Shown piece by piece: positions 2,834-39,313 of a stretch of 64,000 nucleotides of DNA (its first letter is position 1; each line of letters begins with the position of its first letter). The notes under the pieces are model-generated. The model did no database searches and was not told where the DNA came from. It saw nothing but the letters and a program-made list of their open reading frames with translations. A program made the position numbers and the translations under genes. The DNA comes from an uncultured Bacillota bacterium (GTDB taxonomy: Bacteria; Sysuimicrobiota; Sysuimicrobiia; Sysuimicrobiales; Segetimicrobiaceae): positions 128,001-192,000 of the forward strand of contig CAWDRG010000002.1 of assembly GCA_963804645.1 (NCBI GenBank). Direction: 5' to 3'.

Positions 2834-4293
2834 GCCTCTACCGGCTTTCGAGTGGGTACAGGTCCAGCCCTCCGCAGTGAAAGTAGATGGCCGTCTTGAA
2901 ATTGTCGACGTTCCGGAAGCCGCGTGCGGTCTTCTTGACCCACTGGATCGTGGCGTTGACGGCCTCGAGCCCGGCATTCGTGATGCGGTGGCGATGGTAG
3001 GTCAGCACGTTCGGTAGGTGCCTGCGGATCAGCCACGCGACCTGCGCCATAGGCTTGAGCCGGCTGTGCGTGGCGCGCCAGAACCAGCGCGCGAAGAACG
3101 TCTCCGCGGACCGGCGGTAACTGTACTCCCAGAAATGTCGGAAGCGCTCCTTGAGTGCCCAGGCGCGTCCCACTTTCAGGTCATCGCCGAGCAAGAGCCG
3201 GAAGGTGCGCCGCTGTTCGGGCTTGAGCTCGCTCGGCCGGCGTAGCCAAAGGTATTTCGTCCCCGTCAACCGACGATCGGAGGAGCGGGACAACTCCCGG
3301 TGTTCGGTCCGCCGCACCTTGTCCACGGCCGTGTGGAGATGCTTCACGACATGGAACTTATCAAACACAATCTTGTCCACCCCGTCGGGCACGTGACTGG
3401 TGACCGAGTGTATGTAGGGCTCCCACATGTCCATCGCGACGGCGGCGATGCTCTCGCGCTGGGCCGGCGTGCAGGTGGGCCAGAAGGCGTCGAGGCTTTC
3501 CGCTTTGCGATCCTCGTTGACGAACAGCACCCGGTGGCGTTGCAGGTCCGCCACCACGGTCAAGTACCGGTGGCCTTTGGTGATTGCCTTCTCGTCCACG
3601 CCGACGTACGGGATCGGTTCCGCTGTCCGGCGCGCCAGCCCGCGCTTCACCGCCCGGCTCTTAATCCCCCACGCTTCATCCCAGGTGATCCGGAGTAGGG
3701 CCGCCGCGCCGGTGACCGAGCATTCCCGCAGAAAGTCGATCGCCAACCGCTCAAACAACTGCGTGAACTGGCTGCCCGGCTCGGCCCACGGGATGGTGAT
3801 CTGCTTGATCCCGTGCTGAGCGCACTGCACCCGCGGGACATCGGCTTCAATCCACGTGCGCAGCTGGAGCGTGTCCAGATGCCGCCACCGCCGCGGACGG
3901 CGATCATAGCCCGGCGACGGCGTCTGACATTCCGGACACGGAAACGGGCCCGGGCCCGCCTCGACTTTCACCGTCACTTGCTCGCCGGGGATATCCACCT
4001 CCACCCCGACCACCTTCCACGGTGGCGTGAGCCCCAGGATCGTAGCGTATAACTCGACATCGCGCACCAGACCAGCCTCCTCACGAAGCGTTCCCGCCCC
4101 GCGGGTCAGATTGCGCCTGCCGACCATAGTGGCAGGGGTGCACCCGCCCCCGACGGCGGTCAAGAAGCGCGCAGCGCGCCGAAGGCCATGTTCTTGACGG
4201 CCGGCGGGGGTAGGTGTCTGGCTTTGAGCTGGTCGGCAGGCGTTGGTTTCTACTGGTCTACGCTATTTCACCCACACAACTTCCCGAAGAGCC
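2834..4293 (-). mobile_element. ISL3-family insertion sequence, 1460 bp
   Basis: 8-bp direct repeat GAGTTTTC at 2826-2833 and 4294-4301; imperfect 24-bp terminal IRs GCCTCTACCGGCTTTCGAGTGGGT / GGCTCTTCGGGAAGTTGTGTGGGT (16/24). Confidence 0.93.
2838..4067 (-). CDS. ISL3-family transposase
   Basis: Zn-finger CPEC...WRHLD...C..HG, GVDE, AMDMW, FDKFHV and TNAGLEAVN motifs; GTG start with GAGGAGG RBS. Confidence 0.93.
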   Translation of the reverse strand: MRDVELYATILGLTPPWKVVGVEVDIPGEQVTVKVEAGPGPFPCPECQTPSPGYDRRPRRWRHLDTLQLRTWIEADVPRVQCAQHGIKQITIPWAEPGSQFTQLFERLAIDFLRECSVTGAAALLRITWDEAWGIKSRAVKRGLARRTAEPIPYVGVDEKAITKGHRYLTVVADLQRHRVLFVNEDRKAESLDAFWPTCTPAQRESIAAVAMDMWEPYIHSVTSHVPDGVDKIVFDKFHVVKHLHTAVDKVRRTEHRELSRSSDRRLTGTKYLWLRRPSELKPEQRRTFRLLLGDDLKVGRAWALKERFRHFWEYSYRRSAETFFARWFWRATHSRLKPMAQVAWLIRRHLPNVLTYHRHRITNAGLEAVNATIQWVKKTARGFRNVDNFKTAIYFHCGGLDLYPLESR

Positions 4294-29970: not shown

Positions 29971-30816
29971 CTACCGGCTTCCCGGCCCGGCCGCGCGGCG
30001 CCACGGCAGCGCGAGCCACTCCGCGGCGGAAACCGCCACGAAGAGCCCGAGCGCCATCACGCTCAGGTAGACGATCGCGGCAAAGACCACATCCACGTGC
30101 AGCTGTGCGTTCGCGTGGATCATCGTGAATCCAAGCCCGCGCGCCGCGCCGACCCACTCGCCGATCACGGCGCCGATGACGCTCGTCGCGACCGCGATGC
30201 GCGTTCCGGAGAACACGAACGGGAGGGCGGCGGGAATCCGGATCTTCGTGAGGATCTGCCGGGGTCGGGCGCCGAGGATGCGCAGCAGGTTGACCATGTC
30301 GGGGTCGGCCGCGCGGAGCCCGTCCACCGTGTTGACGACGATCGGGAAGAACACGATCAGCGCCGCCATGACCACCTTCGAGGCCATGCCGTAGCCGAAC
30401 CATACGATCAGGAGCGGGGCGATCGCGAACACCGGGACCGTCTGGCTGGCGATGATCAGCGGGTAGACGGCGCGCTCCACCGTCCGCGACGAGAAGATCG
30501 CGAGCGCGAGGCCGATGCCGACGACGAAGGCCACCGCGAACCCGGCGAACACCTCCTGCAGCGTCACCCCGGCGTCCGCGAGCAGCATCGCGTGGTCCGC
30601 GATCACAACGCCGGCGATCCGGCTCGGGGCCGGCAGGATGTAGAACGGCACCCCGAACGCTCGCACCGCCCACTCCCACAGGGCGAGCACCACGAGCAGG
30701 AGCGCCGCGGGCGGCCCCGCCCGCCCGGCCCACCGCGTCCACCGGTCGGCCCAGCGGGCCGTGCCGGCGGGGCGTGGCTCGGCCGCGGGCAGCGCGTGGT
30801 GGTCGATGGTGCTCAT
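29971..30816 (-). CDS. thiX: ABC permease (ThiX/SsuC-like)
   Basis: ILPAPS, QTVP.FAIAPL...WFG, GAVIGEWVGA..GLG. Confidence 0.85.
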   Translation of the reverse strand: MSTIDHHALPAAEPRPAGTARWADRWTRWAGRAGPPAALLLVVLALWEWAVRAFGVPFYILPAPSRIAGVVIADHAMLLADAGVTLQEVFAGFAVAFVVGIGLALAIFSSRTVERAVYPLIIASQTVPVFAIAPLLIVWFGYGMASKVVMAALIVFFPIVVNTVDGLRAADPDMVNLLRILGARPRQILTKIRIPAALPFVFSGTRIAVATSVIGAVIGEWVGAARGLGFTMIHANAQLHVDVVFAAIVYLSVMALGLFVAVSAAEWLALPWRRAAGPGSR

Positions 30817-31598
30817 CGGGACGCCTCGAGTAGTTCCGGCTGCAGCCACGCGAGGATCTGCGCCTTGCGCTCGACCACGCCCGCGTCCGTCGGACGGCGC
30901 GGACGCTCGAGCGGTACCGCCAGTTCGGCGCGCACCCGCCCGGGGCGCGCGGTCATGACGTAGATGCGGTCGGACAGCAGCACGGCCTCCTCGACGTCGT
31001 GGGTGATGAACAGCACCGTGCGGCCGAACTCCTCCCGCAGCCGGAGGAGGTAGTCCTGCATCGTCGAGCGCGTCATCGCGTCGAGCGCGCCGAACGGCTC
31101 GTCGAGCACCAGCAGGTCCCGGCGGCACAGCAGCGTCCGCACCAGCGCCACGCGCTGGCGCATGCCGCCCGACAGCGTGGCGGGATACGCGCGCTCGAAC
31201 CCCTCGAGTCCGAACGTCCGCAGCCACCCGAGCGCCTCCTCGCGCGCCTCGGCGCGGTCGACTCCCTGCACCTCGAGCCCGAGCGCGGCGTTGTCGACCA
31301 CCGTGCGCCACGGCAGCAGGAGGTCCTTCTGCTGCATGTAGGCCACGCGGCTGCCGGTGGCCCCGAGCGGGGTCCCGTCGATCGTGACGGTCCCCTCGTC
31401 GGCGGGCACGAGGCCGGCGACGATGTTGCACACCGTGCTCTTCCCGCACCCGCTCGGGCCGAGCAGCGTCACGAACTCGTGCTCCTCGACGTGCAGCGAT
31501 ACGCCGGTCAGCGCGTCCACCGACGCGGCCCCCCTGCCCCGCGCGGCCGATGCGGGAAAACGCTTCGTGACCCGTTCGATCCGGAGTTTCGTGGTCAT
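30813..31598 (-). CDS. thiZ: ABC ATPase (ThiZ/SsuB-like)
   Basis: GPSGCGKS, LSGGMRQR, LDEPFGALD, ITHD. Confidence 0.87.
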   Translation of the reverse strand: MTTKLRIERVTKRFPASAARGRGAASVDALTGVSLHVEEHEFVTLLGPSGCGKSTVCNIVAGLVPADEGTVTIDGTPLGATGSRVAYMQQKDLLLPWRTVVDNAALGLEVQGVDRAEAREEALGWLRTFGLEGFERAYPATLSGGMRQRVALVRTLLCRRDLLVLDEPFGALDAMTRSTMQDYLLRLREEFGRTVLFITHDVEEAVLLSDRIYVMTARPGRVRAELAVPLERPRRPTDAGVVERKAQILAWLQPELLEASR

Positions 31599-31673
31599 CG
31601 GGCCTCCCGTGTGCCCCGCGCGCATCCGCCGCGCAACGACAACGCGCCGCTCCCGGAACCGGGGCGGCGCGCC

Positions 31674-31772
31674 TCATACTCCCTCCGCTGGCATTACCCA
31701 GATCAGGTTCCGGGGTCGATGGCAGGCAGCCATCCTCTCAGCCTGGTATACCCAAGCTCCCCCACGCTATTC
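31674..31772 (-). promoter_or_regulatory. TPP riboswitch
   Basis: Minus strand GGGGAGC...GCTGAGAGG...GACCC.GAACCTGATCTGGGTAATGCCAGCGGAGGGA; followed by a GC hairpin (31643-31671) before thiZ. Confidence 0.96.
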
Positions 31773-31788
31773 AGTTGTTGGCCCATTC

Positions 31789-31816
31789 AGTATACCACAC
31801 AGCCGTGCGCCCGCAA
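31789..31816 (-). promoter_or_regulatory. Putative thi operon promoter
   Basis: TTGCGG-16 bp-TATACT with extended -10 TG, just upstream of the aptamer. Confidence 0.55.
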
Positions 31817-32029
31817 CCGCGGCGCCGGGCCGGGCAGCGATTTCGCAAATGGACAGGGGGAAGCCAGACGCCTGCTGGTCTCGGGGCGGCATACAAGCTG
31901 TCGAACAGTCTTGCGGTAGATTCGCAGGCGGCACGAGTGCGCGAACGGGAACGGTGGGACGTGATGACGGGGGGAGGACCTGAAGAGTCCGAGTCGCGAC
32001 TCCGGACCTGGGCATCCCGGCGCTGCCGG

Positions 32030-33294
32030 TCAGCTCGAGTCGCGGGTGCACCTGGGCGAACGCTGGGACGACTTGGCGCGCAACCTGGCAGAGCGTCGGC
32101 GGCGTGTGGCGGGCGTGACTCAGCACCTGGCGATGAAAGAACACCAGCAGCAGCGTATAGGCCAGGATGCGAATCATGGTGAGCACCACGAAGGCTTGAT
32201 CGTGCTGCTGGTGCACCGCCGGATGCTTGAGCTGGCACTCTTTCGTCAGCGTCTGGAAGACTTCCGTATCAATGCGCCACCGCGAGCGCCCCAGCGCCGC
32301 GAGCCCCACTGGGGAACAGGCCAGCCGTCGAGGCTGCTGGCGTAGAGGTTCGTGCTCTCTTCCCACACCACCGTTTTGTGCCGCGTCCGGTGGCCCCCCT
32401 CGCGCTGCGACGCACACGCGCGTCTGCGCGTCCCGCCGCACCTCCTTGACGCACCGCACGGACCGGTCTCCCGCCGCCCAGTGCACGTCGGGCACATGCC
32501 AGCAGGTGCGTCGCGACGTCGAGGCGTACCGTCTCCGCCGGCGTCACCTCACTCGTCCTGCGCGCCAGTTCCGCCACCAACTCGGCCTGATTGTCCTTGA
32601 TGGTGCACACCCAATCGAGGCCGAGCGCTTCGATGCGCGTCGATGAACGGCTTGCCGAAATAGAGCGCATCCGCCACCAGGACGTCCACGAACCGCCGCC
32701 CCAACTGGCCCACGAGCTCCTCCAGCAGGGCCTGCGCACACGGCGACTTCGCCTTCGCCCGGCGCCTGAAAGCGCAAGCCCCAGCGGAATCGGAAACGGC
32801 GTGCTCACAACGGCGACCGCCACGATGCGGTGATAGTATTGGACGGCGGTCTGCTGGACGCCGTCGACCATCCGCTCCACCGTCCGCTCCAGACAGGTGT
32901 CGCAGCAGCGGACGTAGGACTGGCAAATCTCGATCCCGTCCACCGCGGCCACGATCAAGCCTTGCGCGGCATCCGTGCGCAGCACCCCATTGCGCTTCAG
33001 CCGGCGCGCCACCTCGCAGCCCAGCGTCAACACCGCCTCAGGCGCCAGGCGCTCGAGGGTGTAGCGCAGCGTGTCCTCACTGAGCGGCCCGATGCGATGG
33101 CGCAGCCCGCCGGCCCGGCACTCATACTCCAACTGATGGAAGCTCGGGATCCGCCCAACCGCGCCCCAGAACACGGCGGCGAAGACCTTCTGGCACGAGT
33201 GCTGCGGGTGCTGCCGCCCCTCCGGCAGGCGGGCCAGCAGCGCCGACCAATCGAAGATTTTCTCCAAATACGCCTCGATCTCGTGCCGCCCCAC
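32030..33294 (-). pseudogene. DDE transposase of element A, multiple frameshifts
   Basis: AAVDG..I...CCDTC...YYH, DVLVADALY, K.NQ, RSRWRIDTE.F..L pieces spread over several frames. Confidence 0.8.
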
Positions 33295-33296
33295 CG

Positions 33297-33684
33297 CTAC
33301 GGGGCCTTCCGCCGTTGCTGGCGCGCCAGGACGAGCAACTGCACGTTCGCCGTCCAGCACCTCGCGCACCGCGTCCTGAAACGCCCGCCCCGCGTCCACC
33401 CGCTGGCGGATCGCGTCGGCCCAGCCCGCAGGAATATGGATCACCCGCGGGCGCCCCGTCTACGCGCACCTGAGGTGCCAGGCCGGATGGCCCACGCCGG
33501 TCGCACAGTGGCACGTCGGTTTCCCGCACCGGACATGGCTGAGCGACAGCGACCCCGGCAACATCTCGTCGACGGTCTCCGGCAGGTGCCACTGCCGCTC
33601 GAGCCCCGCCTTCCGCTGCCGCAGCCGCGCGGCCTCCGGACCTCGCGGCGCCGTGAAATCGACTCGCAACTTCGGTTTGCTCAT
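33297..33684 (-). pseudogene. DUF6788-like small Cys/His protein of element A, frameshifted
   Basis: MLPGSL....RCGKPTCHCATGVGHP; collinear with the intact homologue at 35183-35551. Confidence 0.75.
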
Positions 33685-33920
33685 CTTGCATCCGAGTATA
33701 ATATAAGATACGTAGAATGCAAGCCCGTCCGCAAATGCAAAAATGCTCCTTCAAGGGTGCCTACCGAAAACCCCGCTGCAGCGGGGCCTAGCCGTCACTC
33801 CAGCCCGCCGTTTACGAAATCACTGCCGGGCCGCGCAGGCATTTCGGAATACGGTCTGGGTCACAAGGAGCCCAGGATCCGACGCCTCCCCGAAGGGACA
33901 GGATTGAGCAAGCGGCTGGC

Positions 33921-35186
33921 CTACGAACGTCGGTACGGGTGCTGGAGGGGCGAATTTCGGGGGGTGCAGAGAGGTTGGCGACGCTGGCGGAGGGTCGGCA
34001 GAGCAGAGCCGAGTGGCGCTATGGCTGAACCGCTGTTGGCAACGGCCGGGGATAAGCCGAGATTGATCCGCAGCGCGCGCACGAACTGAATCGCTGTCCG
34101 CACACCGTGGCTGCCGCGATGCAGATGGCGCAGCCGATACAACCGCTCGATCGTCAACGCGAGGAACAGCAGGAGCCAGTTGGCAACGATGCTCGTGGCG
34201 TGATGGTGGCAGAGGTGTTCCATCCCATGCAGCGTCTTGGCCACGTTGAAGCCTTCGTTTTCAATCGCCCACCGGCTCTTCGCCATGAGGAACAGCGCCT
34301 GGCTCGGGACCTGCGCCATCGGCCAGTCGGTGAGCCACATCGCTTCGATGACCTTGCCCGTAGGTTTCGTCTGCCGATACAGGAGCACGCGCACCCGGGC
34401 CCAGCGCAGAGTCCCCCAGGGCGCGAAGTTCTCCGCATCCCACACCTCCACGACATCGCCGCGGTAGGTGAACCGGTGCGTGGGGGCATGCCCGCATAGC
34501 GTTGTCGCGCCGCCGCGTAGAGGTTCGGCAAGTTCTTCTTAAGGCGGACCACGGCATGCAGCCCCAGATCGCCGACCGTGTGCAGGAACGGCACCTTCGC
34601 AAAGTTGCCGTCCGCCACGACGTAATCGGCGAACCGCCGGCCCAGGGCCGCGATCCCCCGCGTCAGCACACGCAGCGCCGCCGCGTACTCACTATCGCGC
34701 GGCCCGTACAGCTCCACATCGCACGGCAAGGGCAGCGTGCTGCCCACAACGCTCAGCAGCACTACGTGATGCCGGTACCCAAGAAGCGGCAGCGCTGTTT
34801 CGTGTAACCCGACGTCGTCGTCCCGTCCACGGCCAGGCCGATCCACGGCGTGCCCGCGAAGGCCTTCGTGCGCTTGGCCCACCGCAGGACGCCGGCCAGA
34901 CCGCCCGAGTGCGCCCCGGATCCATGCGGGCCGTGAAATAGGCGAGAGCGTCATTCCCAAACGCGCGGCACACCGCCAGCGCGCGCCGCGCCCGTGACCG
35001 CACCAACGCTTCCACGCCCGCGAAAGAATCTTCCCGCAGCACATGGCCGACCACCAAGCCCCACACCAATGCGCGCGCAGGAATCCGCGGGCGGAGCCGG
35101 CCATCGCCCGGCCGCTCAAAAAAGTCGCCCAAACGAAGGATATGCGTGACGTACTTCCAGAGCCGACGGGGCGTCGGCCCGCTCAC
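33921..35186 (-). pseudogene. DDE transposase of element B, frameshifted
   Basis: GYRHH.V, DSEY.AA, DYVVADG.F, V.LKKNLP.L, KSRWAIENEGFN..K; GTGA overlap with the upstream ORF; true end probably near 34026. Confidence 0.8.
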
Positions 35187-35551
35187 CGCCGCCGCTTCCG
35201 CGCCAACACGAACTGCTCCGCGTTGGCCGTGAGCACGTCGCGCACCGCCTCCTGTAGCGCTCGCCCGGCCGCGACGCGCTGCGCCACTTCTTCCGCCCAT
35301 TCCTGCGGCACGCGCTCTGTGCGCTTCCGTCCCTTCACCGTGAAGCTCAATGTCCAGGCGGGATGCCCCGGGCCTGTCGCACAATGACACCCCGGCTGTC
35401 CGCACCGCGTCTCGCTCCGTGTGAGCGACCCGGGCAACATCGCCGTCACGCTCGCTGGCAGCTGAAAGCGGCGGATCAGCGCATGGCTACGCTGCCGCAG
35501 CTTTGCGGCCTCATCTCCGGTCAGCTCGCGTGGACTCATCGCGTCTCGCAT
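35183..35551 (-). CDS. DUF6788-like small Cys/His protein of element B
   Basis: MLPGSL....RCGQPGCHCATGPGHP.W.L; basic C-terminus; translationally coupled to the transposase. Confidence 0.8.
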   Translation of the reverse strand: MRDAMSPRELTGDEAAKLRQRSHALIRRFQLPASVTAMLPGSLTRSETRCGQPGCHCATGPGHPAWTLSFTVKGRKRTERVPQEWAEEVAQRVAAGRALQEAVRDVLTANAEQFVLARKRRR

Positions 35552-35720
35552 CTTGTAGGTATACTCCTACAAGATTCCCGCAAAGTCAAGGGGTCCTTAC
35601 CAAATGCGAAAATAGAACCCCCGATGTCTCTACACCGGGGGGTGGCTCAAATCCGCTCTGAAGACGTGCGCCTTACTTATGACCCTCGACTATTCCGAAA
35701 CTACGCGGGCCGCGGTAGTG

Positions 35721-36414
35721 TCAAGAGTTATGTGTAGATTCCCTTGAGAGAGAGCGCCTCGCCTGCCGGACGTTCAGGGCATAGACGATCGCATAAATAA
35801 TCCGATCACAGCTGGCTACGTTCGTGAAGCACGTATGGGGCGCGTGCGCCGGCGGACTTCGCGAAACACGCGTTCAATCGCATTTGTGGTGCGGACCCGG
35901 CGCCAGTCCGCCTCGGCGACGGATAGAAGCTGAGCAGGGCGTCCTCCTCGCGCGTCAGACAGGCGACCGCGGCGGGGGCGGTGGCCTGCCAGGCCTGGAC
36001 CCACTGGCGCAGGAGGCGGCGCGCGGCGTGGGTGGTCGGTGCCTGATAGATCCGGCGCGCCATGCGCAAACACGCCTCCCGGTCCTTGACCCGCAGCCGA
36101 TTGGCCACGTTGCGGAGGACATGGACCCAGCACGCTTGGCGCGGGATGACCGAATAGACCAAATCGAGGGCGGCATGGAGGCCCCGATGACCGTCCGTGG
36201 TAATCAGCTGCAACTGCTTCCCCACTAACCCCCGGCAGGCCAGCGTCGTGAGAAAGGCTTCCAGGTGGCTTGGGTCTCGTAGCGAGCCAGCCGGAAATCG
36301 ATCAGGTCCCGCTGCCCGGTGGGCCGAATGCCGTAGGCCACGAGAATCAAGCGGCGCTTGCTTCCGCGAGCCCTTTCACCCGGAGGCTGACGGCGTCGAG
36401 GAACAGATATTGAT
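35721..36414 (-). pseudogene. IS256 transposase, C-terminal part
   Basis: YLFLDAV, LVAYGI, ITTDG..GL, Q.CWVH.LRN, RTTNAIER.FREVRRRT; frameshifts. Confidence 0.87.
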
Positions 36415-36480
36415 TCGGATAACCCACTCGCTATAAACACGAGCTTTGACCACTAGCGACGAATCTCGAACGTGGTTGGC

Positions 36481-36981
36481 TTATGGCGAACCGATGACAC
36501 CGATTGCCTGCGCGTAACTGAGGTGGACACATTCGCCCGGCGAGCAGGCTGGCCCGCCCACGCCGCGCGGAATCGGCCGTGGGTCCAAGTAGCGTGCATC
36601 CACCTGTGCGTCTCCGTCAGAGATGAGGTAGTGACCCATGCGCGGATCGGGACCAGGAGCGCTGTAACCGTAGCGTGCGCCGGTGGGACTACCCGGTAAC
36701 GACCGGCACCTTCTTTAGATAGGTCGGAGTGAGTGCGTCGAGCGTCTTTGGATACGCGTTTTTGTGGTCGACAGCGTACTCTTCGAGCGCCGTCGCGATC
36801 GTCTTGAGAAACGCGAGATCGACGATCGTGTAGATGGCGCGCGGGTCGCGGCTGGGGTTCATGGCGCCGCGATCTGCACGTCGAGCAGGGGGACAGATAA
36901 CATAGACCCTGCGGCACGCGCCCCATCCGACAAGCACACAAGCGCGGCAATCGAGAGAACCGCGAATAGGCGTCGTCTCAT
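36481..36981 (-). pseudogene. Secreted pseudopilin/GspG-like protein, two frameshifts
   Basis: AAGGAG RBS, signal peptide MRRRLFAVLSIAALVCL, then LKTIATALEEYAVDH..AYP.TL.AL.P.YL..VP...YGY and a C-terminal Cys pair. Confidence 0.6.
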
Positions 36982-37013
36982 GATGCTCTCCTTTATGTCG
37001 AACACAGTCTAAA

Positions 37014-38536
37014 CCGGGATTTCCATTGTCTGTGTCTGAACACCTTGTGTTGAAGGAGTCCATCTGGCTCTTCAGGGACGAGTGTGACCGACGGCCCCAT
37101 GAAAGGCTGTTCGGGCCCGTCCGAAACCCCCAATCCCGGGCATGGTCGCGCTGGCCACCGATTTCTCAGACACGTCCCCCTCGGCCTCCTTCTCGTCCTT
37201 GTTGGCCGCGACGATCGCCGGCTGCTATCCCGCCGGCACCGACAGCGTCGTAAGCCGCTGCACGATCGCCCCGAACAGTTGCCGCGTGAGGTGCCCCTCC
37301 GCCAGCAGCAGCCAGTAGTATCGGGCGTGTTTCACGAGCCGGCCACCCGTCTTCATCAGCCGCTGCTGCAGACTCGTCAGCGACCAGCGTGTCGATCCGC
37401 TTCGGCAGCCCGAGCCGCCGCCAGAGGTTCCCCAGATTGTACGCAATGATGCTCAGCCACAACCGCACCTCATTCGCCCGGAACCGGTGGCAACTCAATC
37501 GCGTCATCTTCACTGCCTGTTTGCCCTCCTTGATCCACTGCTCCGCCGTCCCGCGTTTATTGTAGAACCGCACCACCGCCCGGCTGTCTGTCGCCAGGGT
37601 CGTCACGATGAAGCCCACTCGAGGAAACAGTTCCCCGCAGTGGAACTCGATCTTCGCCACCACGCGCCGCGCGATCTTCCAACTCGCGGCCTGGTACCGG
37701 AAGCTCGTGTACCGCACCACCGGCTTGTGACTGGGTCGCCCGACCGGCCGCGTGAGCAGCTCCGCGATGGCCCGCTCCAAGATGTCGTTGGAGGGGATGC
37801 GAATGGCGTACGTTGCGTTCCGCGTCTCCAGGGCTTCGTAGAGCTCCGGCTTGGCAAAACCGGCATCGGCCCGGACGACCACGTCCTTGCCCTGCCGCTG
37901 CTGCCGCTCGAGCTCGGGCAGCAGCACCTGGTCCCACTCCTCGGCGCTGTGGACGTTGCCCGGTCGCAGCTTTGCCGCCAGACAGTCGCCCTCCCGATTG
38001 AACAGCAGCAGCGGATGGTAGCAGGTCGACGCAAAGTGCCCGTTGTAGGCGCTCTGCTCCTGCTGGCCGTAGACAGGGATCTCGGTACTATCGAGATCGA
38101 GCACCACCCGCTGCGGGGTGTCCACGGGGTCCACCCGTGCGATCAGCTCCCGATTGATCGCGGCCAGCCCGGCGAGGTTCTCATCTTGGGTCAGCAACTC
38201 CGTCTCGAAGGAGTGCGCCCGGGACGTCAGGGCGGCCCCGCGCTCCCAGACGCTGCTCCGACCCGATCAGCCGGAAGGTCGGATCCTGGGAGAGGCGTTC
38301 AGCATCATTCACGTCCTCGTACCCCGCCAATCGGCGGTAGACCGATTGCCGGACCAGGTCGGCGAGCGGGAACTGCGTGTTCGTGCCCCGCGGATCGGTC
38401 AAGTGCTGTGCGATGAGGGTCGCTGAAGCCCAACCGCTCGTCCAGTTCGCGGACGAGGATCAGGCCGCCATCGGAGGTGACCCGCGCCCCCTGGAACTCG
38501 ATCTTCAACGCGGTGTTGAACGAGAGCTGAAAGGGC
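37014..38536 (-). mobile_element. IS1380-family element lacking its left end
   Basis: Transposase (about 37225-38536, frameshifted) with PFQLSFN..F.G.RVTSDGG, AGYEDVNDA, LDLDS, YNGH...CYHPL, RADAGF, YNKRG.AEQWIKE; probable right end CCGGGATTTCCATT at 37014. Confidence 0.85.
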
Positions 38537-39033
38537 TGATCGACTAGCGTCCGGTGGTGGAAGGCCGCTGCGGCTTGATCCAAGGTCTGGGTGATCGTCG
38601 AGACGGTCGTGGGACTGACCACGTCGTCGAGGAAATTGGCGAGGACGGGCCGACCTGGCGGGTGGAGAGGCCGCAGAGGAAGACGGCGCGGACGAGTGCG
38701 TTGACGTCACTGGTGCGGCGCTGGTAGCGGCCGAGCACCGAGGGCTGGACCCCGCTCTGGGGGCCCGGGGAATATGGAGATCGGGGATGGTGCCCCACGT
38801 CGTCACCAAACGGCGGCGGTAGACGCCATTCCGATACCCCGGCCGGTCCGGATTCCGAGTATACCGGCCAGCATTCAGATGGTTGATCAACTCGTCATGC
38901 ATCCGGTTCTCCAGCAAGAGCTTGACCGTGCCGAGCGTCTCCCGCGAGACGTCCCCCACAAGGTTCCTTCGTCCTTGACCTCTTTCCACAGATCGGTGAC
39001 CGTGAGATCGGTCAGTGGTCGCACACTGGCCAT
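38537..39033 (-). pseudogene. IS256 transposase, N-terminal part
   Basis: AAGGAGG RBS; RY.R...R.GYRNG.Y.R.L.T..G.I..L.IPR, GLSTRQV, VSPTTVS. Confidence 0.87.
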
Positions 39034-39313
39034 GGGCGTATCCCTCCTTTTCGTTGGTCAGGTCTGGGGTACGCTCTCTCCCTTGGGGTCCCTGCTTTTA
39101 CACACAACACCGTACACTGCCGGCCGCGGGCGCACGGATCACCCCGTCGCTGGCGCGGCCCGGCAGGCGGCGCCGATGCGGCACAGGAAAATGCGTCCGG
39201 CGCCATGAACTCAGACAGCGCCGAAGACGTTTCTGTACGCGATCTCACCATGCTGGGTGTGGACGGCGGGGACGGCTGCGGCTGGCCTGGACGCATGCGG
39301 GGAGGACGGCGAC

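Follow-up and report, generated by a model that had tools for sequence, protein, structure and literature searches.

The stretch of DNA examined here (hereafter the window; 64,000 nt, G000:C2:128001-192000, where G000 is the 5.3-Mb source genome) contains a tandem stack of insertion sequences (IS) on the upstream side of a thi promoter, several of them having entered what is essentially the same short site. Coordinates are window positions unless prefixed by a contig, and the features of the locus are collected in Table 1. The promoter drives a thiamine pyrophosphate (TPP) riboswitch, the model of which begins 16 nt downstream of the -10 box, and it is intact despite the insertions, with a TGG preceding the -10 box (extended -10). 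The start of the -10 box is located 41 nt from the end of the nearest element, element A, which has the 3' end of its transposase towards the promoter, while a gene for a cyclic nucleotide (cNMP)-binding protein lies to the right of the stack on the plus strand. An original prediction, made from the DNA letters, had described near-identical target copies between the elements and a common orientation of the transposases; all of the quoted strings are present, and every transposase remnant lies on the minus strand. The prediction had counted three IS of two families, which proved to be four elements of three families, an IS1380-family element being nested within the IS256-family member. Its reading of the locus as a tandem array in a harmless place, built by two DUF6788-type elements and an unrelated IS256 at one site of about 10 bp, is upheld by the present analysis.

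Table 1. Features of the thi locus and of the IS stack upstream of it (window positions).
Feature	Position	Strand	Details
ABC-transporter operon behind the riboswitch	30813-31625 (ATPase)		ATPase, then permease and NMT1/THI5-like binding protein; Pfam ABC_tran, BPD_transp_1, NMT1
TPP riboswitch	31663-31773	-	Rfam RF00059, 54.5 bits against a gathering score of 54.3
thi promoter	31789-31817	-	-10 TATACT (31789-31794), -35-like GTTGCG (31812-31817); read from sequence
Inverted-repeat arms, 12 bp	31803-31814 (left); 39126-39137 (right)		left CCGTGCGCCCGC; right GCGGGCGCACGG
Target copy 1	31825-31834		CCGGGCCGGG; promoter-proximal copy
Element A	31835-33825	-	DUF6788 + DDE_Tnp_1 IS, 1991 bp; inverted repeats CAGCGATTTCGCAAA / CAGTGATTTCGTAAA; frameshifted
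Target copy 2	33826-33835		CCGGGCCGCG
Element B	33836-35705	-	DUF6788 + DDE element of a different subfamily from A
Target copy 3	35706-35714		CGGGCCGCG
IS256-family element	35714/5-39120	-	Transposase_mut; ends GGTAGTGTC...GTACACTGCC; frameshifted, split by the nested IS
Nested IS1380-family element	36421-38545	-	about 2.1 kb, approximate ends; DDE_Tnp_1_4, 1.9e-79
Target copy 4	39121-39128		CGGCCGCG; one G short

All of the elements in the stack are decayed, with many frameshifts, and where the genome holds further copies of them the identity to these is 86-94%. Element A has four further copies in G000 (86-88% identical), each of them flanked by an exact 10-bp target duplication. Element B is single-copy, without a close relative elsewhere in G000; its orfA is intact (35183-35551) and closely resembles that of locus L019 in genome G005, its orfB is split into at least three frames, and its pieces are 51-62% identical to P0001, the intact orfB product described below. 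The IS256 element, the first base of which is probably the final G of target copy 3, is 92-94% identical to the other G000 copies. Compared with contigs carrying sister copies, it lacks single C residues in the C-runs at 35834, 35922, 36260, 36362, 38649 and 38760, reflecting either real decay or homopolymer assembly errors. The nested element passes the IS1380 cut-off (NF033539, 246.4 bits against 180 for the largest fragment) and has a 94% identical copy at G000 C21:14952-17054, and metagenome contigs that carry other IS256 copies skip positions 36414-38537, i.e. they are without the nested IS1380 part. Within the nested element is approximately 0.8 kb of lower-GC DNA with a 124-aa open reading frame (36689-37063, minus strand) that has no Pfam match; since the second copy retains this DNA, it belongs to the IS1380 element.

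Elements A and B are members of a two-gene family that is represented in G000 by three subfamilies (A, B/B' and D/D2) and, in intact form, by an identical 1941-bp pair (C6:71896-73836 and C19:242433-244373). The genes of the intact copies overlap by ATGA, with orfA encoding a 129-aa DUF6788 protein (P0002) and orfB a 399-aa DDE_Tnp_1 protein (P0001). The orfA products score above the DUF6788 gathering threshold (PF20586; 54.4 and 62.3 bits against 27.2), and a serine, a C-G-x3-C-x-C motif and a histidine are invariant among 12 sequences. The predicted orfA structure (predicted local distance difference test, pLDDT, 84.3) comprises a small sheet and a long C-terminal helix, and a fold search with this model against PDB gave no match at E <= 0.001. 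The orfB products score above the Pfam DDE_Tnp_1 cut-off (40 and 26.4 bits against 23), and both fall below every NCBIfam cut-off, including those for IS4 (50.3 and 21.9 against 115) and IS701 (31 against 150).

Comparison of the DNA flanking these elements revealed a common geometry. Counting nucleotides outward from the IS end, as is done for promoter boxes throughout, the transposase-3' end is followed by the 9-10-nt target, 8 unconserved nt, a -35-like hexamer, about 17 nt and a -10-like hexamer, so ordered that the promoter points away from the element and the transposase 3' end is on the promoter side. In the phylum of the source genome (G000 and relatives), 23 insertions with a transposase-3' flank and 18 with a 5' flank were counted. 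TAnnnT starts at nt 41-43 in 22 of the 23 transposase-3' flanks, compared with none of the 18 flanks on the other side; with a background of 0.00185 per position this corresponds to a binomial P of ~5e-49, a value uncorrected for kinship and for the post-hoc choice of window. Similarly, TTG or nTGA starts at nt 17-19 in 18/23 flanks versus 1/18 opposite flanks. The 23 insertions omit the stack members other than A, the truncated C22 copy, all copies from the unpublished genome G078, loci L013, L043, L047 and L052 (ends undefinable or cut by the contig) and L031 (the contig consists of the element only), and they include two, L010 and L011, with mutually homologous flanks, which are therefore not fully independent.

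The same arrangement was observed well beyond the phylum. A search seeded with one protein returned a single locus and a closer alignment of A-type sequences returned 4, while the orfA alignment yielded at least 79 loci, 78 of them new, with at least 482 confirmed relatives in species genomes; the other-phyla loci come from Acidobacteriota, Planctomycetota, Nitrospiraceae, Eisenbacteria and Micromonosporaceae, among others. Ends were defined by a filter (CA...TG ends, at least 10/16 inverted-repeat matches and a 9-10-bp duplication with at most one mismatch) that succeeded for 36 of the 78 new loci, and only these were counted. TAnnnT starts at nt 41-43 in 25 of the 36, and at exactly nt 41 in 21, compared with 1/36 on the opposite side. 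Among the 35 insertions with 9-bp duplications the conserved columns are restricted to T18 (29), T19 (21), G20 (26), T41 (24), A42 (30) and T46 (27), with no conserved position within nt 1-17. Where the spacer varies, the -35 box mostly remains at nt 18 and the -10 box shifts (pairs 18/41, 18/42, 18/40 and 18/38), and where the -35 box is poor (fewer than 4/6 matches), the -10 box is still found at nt 39-43 in 21 of 26 insertions.

A comparable relationship to promoters is evident for the IS256-family element, which carries a transposase of a different kind (NF033543, 303.8 bits against a cut-off of 150 for an intact sister; Pfam Transposase_mut, 2.7e-85). Copies in G000 are about 1.29 kb long, with ends GGTAGTGTC...GTACACTACC and imperfect terminal repeats, and are associated with 9-bp duplications of unrelated sequence that are clear in 4 of the 8 copies and are 1-nt ambiguous or mismatched in the rest. 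The clade was assessed with 22 copies from G000 and 13 other genomes of the phylum, which provided 36 assessable flanks. Measured from the true ends, a -10 box starts at nt 38-43 on one side in 16 of the 22 copies (6 with the promoter beyond the transposase-3' end, 10 with it beyond the 5' end), such that either orientation is used, and 16/36 flanks fit (P ~3e-22). When elements A and B are removed from the window, the IS256 member of the stack is placed 40 nt from the thi -10 box, as in its sisters and 1 nt closer than element A.

This pattern is not a general property of mobile DNA in the genome. Among nine other repeat or IS families of G000 (35 copies, 70 flanks), examined as controls, TAnnnT within nt 36-48 was found in only 5 flanks and at no fixed place. 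With regard to the promoters themselves, one drives the TPP riboswitch and three directly precede tRNA genes (Pro, Arg and Ser), a context in view of which they look real. Two further repeat families of G000 can be mentioned here. Family F4 (~1.4 kb; e.g. G000 C6:45263-46685 and C9:313876-315298) often has a -10-like hexamer 22-41 nt off one end, at variable distance, and may have a looser promoter-side preference. Family F5 (1460 bp; window 2834-4293, G000 C2:130834-132293), with four copies in the genome, is flanked by AT-rich short duplications and not by promoters.

Two additional stacks in G000 are organised along the same lines. The first (C13:50811-56294) reads GTTCGGCGA-[D2]-GTTCGGCGA-[D]-ATTCGGCGA-A-[IS256]-TTCGGCGAA, elements being bracketed, followed by TATAAT at nt 41; its outermost element, D2, is broken, and its innermost, the IS256, is 98% identical to the intact protein. 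The second (C15:173132-176600) reads [D2]-CGTTACGCC-A-[IS256-like], followed by TTGACA N16 TATAAT. Both show a 1-nt shift between the target duplications of one family and those of the other, as does the window. Two other accounts of these junctions were considered and discarded. The idea that IS256 homes to DUF6788 element ends, or vice versa, was prompted by the 1-nt offset at the three junctions, and it fails in that solo copies obey the promoter rule; a promoter inside the IS256 end, as a target for element D, has its boxes at the wrong distance.

Taken together, these data indicate, with a probability put at roughly 0.8, that the stack was produced by repeated promoter-anchored transposition, two unrelated families of DDE transposase choosing the target by its distance from a sigma-70-type promoter and not by its sequence or fold. 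Under this reading a DUF6788 element would make a 9-10-bp staggered cut that leaves 8 nt between the duplicated target and the -35 box, putting the -35 box at nt 18-19 and the -10 box at nt 41-43, whereas members of the IS256 clade would cut 1 nt closer, in either orientation, leaving the boxes at nt 17 and nt 40. With the cut upstream of the -35 box, both the promoter and the promoter-side target copy would survive the insertion; the next element, measured from the same promoter, would consequently land in the same bases and push older elements outward, so that the newest element comes to lie nearest to the promoter. The order of arrival at thi would then be IS256 first, followed by B and then A, with IS1380 entering the IS256 element at some later time. 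The two predictions that follow, namely that the newest element is nearest to the promoter and that the families are offset by 1 nt, hold at thi, C13 and C15.

What the transposases might recognise is less certain. To our knowledge, the sigma-A holoenzyme is the only thing that reads the -35 and -10 boxes together, and, since 21 of the 26 insertions with a weak -35 keep the -10 box, the landmark would appear to be the whole promoter. RNA polymerase holoenzyme seated on the promoter, sensed through protein contact or through a bend that it imposes on the upstream DNA, is on balance the slightly favoured candidate, judging from the positions of the boxes. The cuts made by the two enzymes, unrelated as they are, fall no more than 1 nt apart, which suggests a structural cue, and it may be speculated that such a cue (a bend in the upstream DNA, or the boundary of the polymerase footprint) is as likely as a specific contact. 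A broader and more tentative proposal, to which somewhat less than even weight is given, is that the polymerase-occupied promoter acts as a generic docking landmark, used independently by unrelated DDE transposases through a structural cue and not a family-specific adaptor; the cuts would then fall within one base of each other, some 44-53 nt upstream of the start site. The DUF6788 protein is probably not the targeting factor, since the IS256 elements home without it, and a regulatory role is favoured on the same ground.

The alternative that survives best is direct recognition of promoter DNA: polymerase would play no part, the transposases would sense the boxes themselves (or no more than a TTGAC-like hexamer) at a set distance, and insertions beside chance hexamers within genes would subsequently be removed by selection. 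The TTG at nt 17-19 is indeed the sharpest of the column signals, and the -35 box mostly stays at nt 18 while the -10 box moves with the spacer. However, persistence of the -10 box in insertions with a poor -35 is difficult to reconcile with this explanation, which would also need two unrelated transposases both to read a bipartite site 20-45 bp from the cut, and the target duplication and adjoining 8 nt contain no conserved base. Direct reading is accordingly regarded as unlikely, albeit the least so of the alternatives.

It is considerably harder to credit that insertion is random and that the pattern was imposed by selection, with copies surviving or being favoured just upstream of promoters, for example where an A/T-richer IS end serves as an UP element. 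All of the data are from standing copies, and any element landing less than about 17 nt from the -35 box would inactivate the promoter, both of which are compatible with a selective origin. Selection of this kind, however, would set a lower bound on the distance and not a single base, whereas 21 of the 36 other-phyla insertions have the -10 box at exactly nt 41. Moreover, the nine control families, resident in the same genome and exposed to the same selection, show no such peak, and the DUF6788 elements are strictly one-way (0/18 and 1/36 on the other side).

Several observations nevertheless count against promoter-anchored transposition as formulated above. In 9 of the 36 other-phyla insertions TAnnnT is absent from nt 39-43, and four of these (L106, L110, L150 and L178) have nothing promoter-like that could be discerned by eye; in L038, the one miss among the 23 insertions of the source phylum, the -10 box is at nt 51, behind a tandem second copy of the 10-nt string CGCCGGGACG. 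The other-phyla count, additionally, covers loci with ends found by the repeat and duplication filter, and 42 of the 78 lie outside it. In the IS256 clade, two copies that are readable on both flanks fit on neither, and four that are readable on a single side are negative on that side; the -10 box of the G000 C9 copy is at nt 33, and L074 lacks one on both sides. On its right, the IS256 in the stack has a target copy that is short by one or two bases, such that its duplication is not exactly readable. The positions are, furthermore, those of standing survivors, in which target choice and post-insertion selection are not separated, and contact with RNA polymerase is a suggestion drawn from box geometry. 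Finally, the IS256 family (p-MULT 1) is recorded as being without promoter enrichment, and its insertion reported as random, by Guerillot et al. (2014; PMC3942029).

Two details of individual DUF6788 insertions are recorded separately. The 5' flank of an A copy near G000 C6 40830 has an extra tandem target string, ACTGATCCAA CTGATCCAA, which may mark where an earlier element sat before leaving the same promoter-anchored site. L038 has such an extra string in its 3' flank (CGCCGGGACG twice), but its 5' flank does not match, and this origin is less sure there. At L010 (genome G006) and L011 (G005), a B-like element lies upstream of one promoter-plus-leader of about 60 nt, TTTGTCTCCC...TATACTACGTCA.GACTTTCGCACGCTCCAGGGAC, with adjoining target strings that differ, and these are either independent hits on a favoured promoter or an old shared insertion.

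The original prediction had attributed the stack to a GC-rich stem-loop, formed by a 12-bp inverted repeat, with the structure itself drawing in the elements. The repeat itself is real: the two arms are present (a repeat search reports the pair as 17 nt, 88%), as is the alternative inner pair CCGCGGC/GCCGCGG (31817-23 and 39123-29), and the left arm, which had been said to overlap the -35 box, sits in the promoter spacer and the -35 box. Perfect 12-bp inverted repeats with a 3-30-nt loop are also uncommon, with 256 loci in G000 or about one per 20.7 kb, and the target is within the loop. Targeting by the hairpin was nevertheless rejected, the 12-bp repeat not being common to target sites, and next to no credence is now given to it. 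The other element A copies have unrelated 10-bp targets (ACTGATCCAA, CCCGCGGGAG, GGCCAGCGGC and GGTTTCGGTA), the B' and D copies have 9-bp duplications that are likewise unrelated in sequence, and the flanks of other copies are unstructured, with 13 reconstructed DUF6788 empty sites having longest perfect inverted repeats of 4-7 bp, ordinary folding energies (z -1.8 to +1.5) and no shared hairpin. Even at thi, the reconstructed site folds about as stably as its composition would lead one to expect (z 0.54), and the repeat is imperfect in the empty site of the same-genus genome G004 (C3, near 31060-31110). The 12-bp repeat could instead be bound by a regulator acting in the divergent intergenic region, or could have arisen by chance in GC-rich DNA.

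Physical evidence for the empty site was obtained from G004 and from public contigs of four peat-metagenome runs, including X1 and X2. The empty allele that had been predicted was recovered exactly, an X2 contig joining 31827 to 39122 to give AACCGCGGCGCCGGGCCGCGGGCGCACGG, and G004 has its two flanks next to each other, with CCGGGTCGCG present once; a second, more divergent empty join, from 31818 to 39167, is present in contigs of runs X1 and X2. No public contig in the four runs bridges a stack junction with at least 31 letters on both sides, and element B is barely covered, and the runs seem to hold relatives with an empty site rather than the source strain. Since no public contig bridges the junctions, continuity of the stack depends solely on the 222-kb contig. 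Although this, together with the richness of the stack copies in single-base indels, would be consistent with an assembly artefact in which repeats have been misjoined in a metagenome-assembled genome, such an artefact is scarcely credible given that each junction has the expected target copy in register, that element B is unique in G000 and so cannot be a collapsed repeat, that four IS256 copies in the assembly encode an identical intact protein (100%, 399 residues), attesting to good consensus quality, and that the two further stacks obey the same logic.

Promoter-anchored transposition provides a simple, testable rule for IS pile-ups, i.e. that the promoter landmark outlives each insertion, and suggests that the transcription machinery has been adopted convergently as a safe harbour. 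It would enlarge the still short published set of promoter-homing bacterial transposons by two groups, a widespread two-gene IS4-like family with at least 482 relatives and a clade of the classical IS256 family. In phyla with hardly any characterised promoters, real ones are marked by the outward flanks of these elements, with the -35 box at nt 17-19 and the -10 box at nt 40-43, and an enzyme able to insert a short way upstream of a promoter while leaving it intact is potentially useful for genome engineering. If the occupied promoter is in fact a generic docking landmark, then promoters would gather layered IS arrays that record the order of invasion, and element flanks would amount to a natural promoter map for uncultured phyla.

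Promoter-targeting TnGBS elements were reportedly described by Brochet et al. in 2009, as cited by Guerillot et al. The literature search found no paper that mentions DUF6788 or that covers the DUF6788 family or the present IS256 clade, and nothing on IS4-like or IS256-family elements that home to promoters. According to Guerillot et al. (2014; PMC3942029), TnGBS/ISLre2 (p-MULT 3) and the ISKra4 group (p-MULT 4), which have Mutator-like DDE transposases, insert 15-17 bp upstream of sigma-A -35 boxes, with a peak at 16 bp; their orientation follows inverted-repeat asymmetry, and the authors, pointing to Ty3 as an analogy, proposed that the initiation complex is contacted. The excerpted portion of a second paper (PMC9208149) singles out only ISLre2 and ISKra4 by IS-to-gene distance, while that of a third (PMC8024623) describes AT-rich hot spots upstream of a reporter gene at no fixed distance.

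The spacing of 15-17 bp given for these groups is close to that observed here (16 nt in the IS256 clade and 17-18 nt in the DUF6788 family), and they share with the present families the absence of a conserved target sequence and an 8-10-bp duplication. Guerillot et al. propose that the orientation of TnGBS-type elements is fixed if the two inverted repeats differ and free if they are alike; here the DUF6788 family is one-way and the IS256 clade inserts both ways (6 versus 10). The enzymes are different: the DUF6788 family combines a DDE_Tnp_1 transposase, weakly IS4-like, with a small zinc protein, and the IS256 clade belongs to p-MULT 1, neither being of the Mutator-like p-MULT 3/4 type. With the wider IS256 family the clade shares the transposase family, a size of about 1.29 kb, mostly 9-bp duplications and imperfect terminal repeats, yet the family is described as random, and the clade is promoter-anchored in 16 of 22 copies. 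The DUF6788 elements share DDE_Tnp_1, CA...TG ends and 9-10-bp duplications with the IS4 and IS701 families, from which they differ in having two ATGA-overlapping genes with DUF6788 first, in scoring far below the IS4 and IS701 cut-offs and in being promoter-anchored. IS that target hairpins or repetitive extragenic palindromic (REP) sequences, of the IS110/IS1111 type (e.g. ISPpu9 in REP), are alike in their repeated use of one short site, but have DEDD transposases, whereas the present enzymes are DDE and their targets have no shared hairpin or sequence. Yeast Ty3, which is directed to Pol III start sites via TFIIIB/TFIIIC (PMC3942029), would be analogous in being positioned by a bound transcription machine, if that is indeed what positions the present elements, but is a eukaryotic retroelement with a different enzyme. 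Mixed-family tandem stacks at one promoter are not mentioned for TnGBS, ISLre2 or ISKra4 in the available sections of PMC3942029. The kind of targeting is thus already known, and what is new is its two carriers, the DUF6788 IS4-like family and the IS256 clade, together with the mixed-family stacks that they form.

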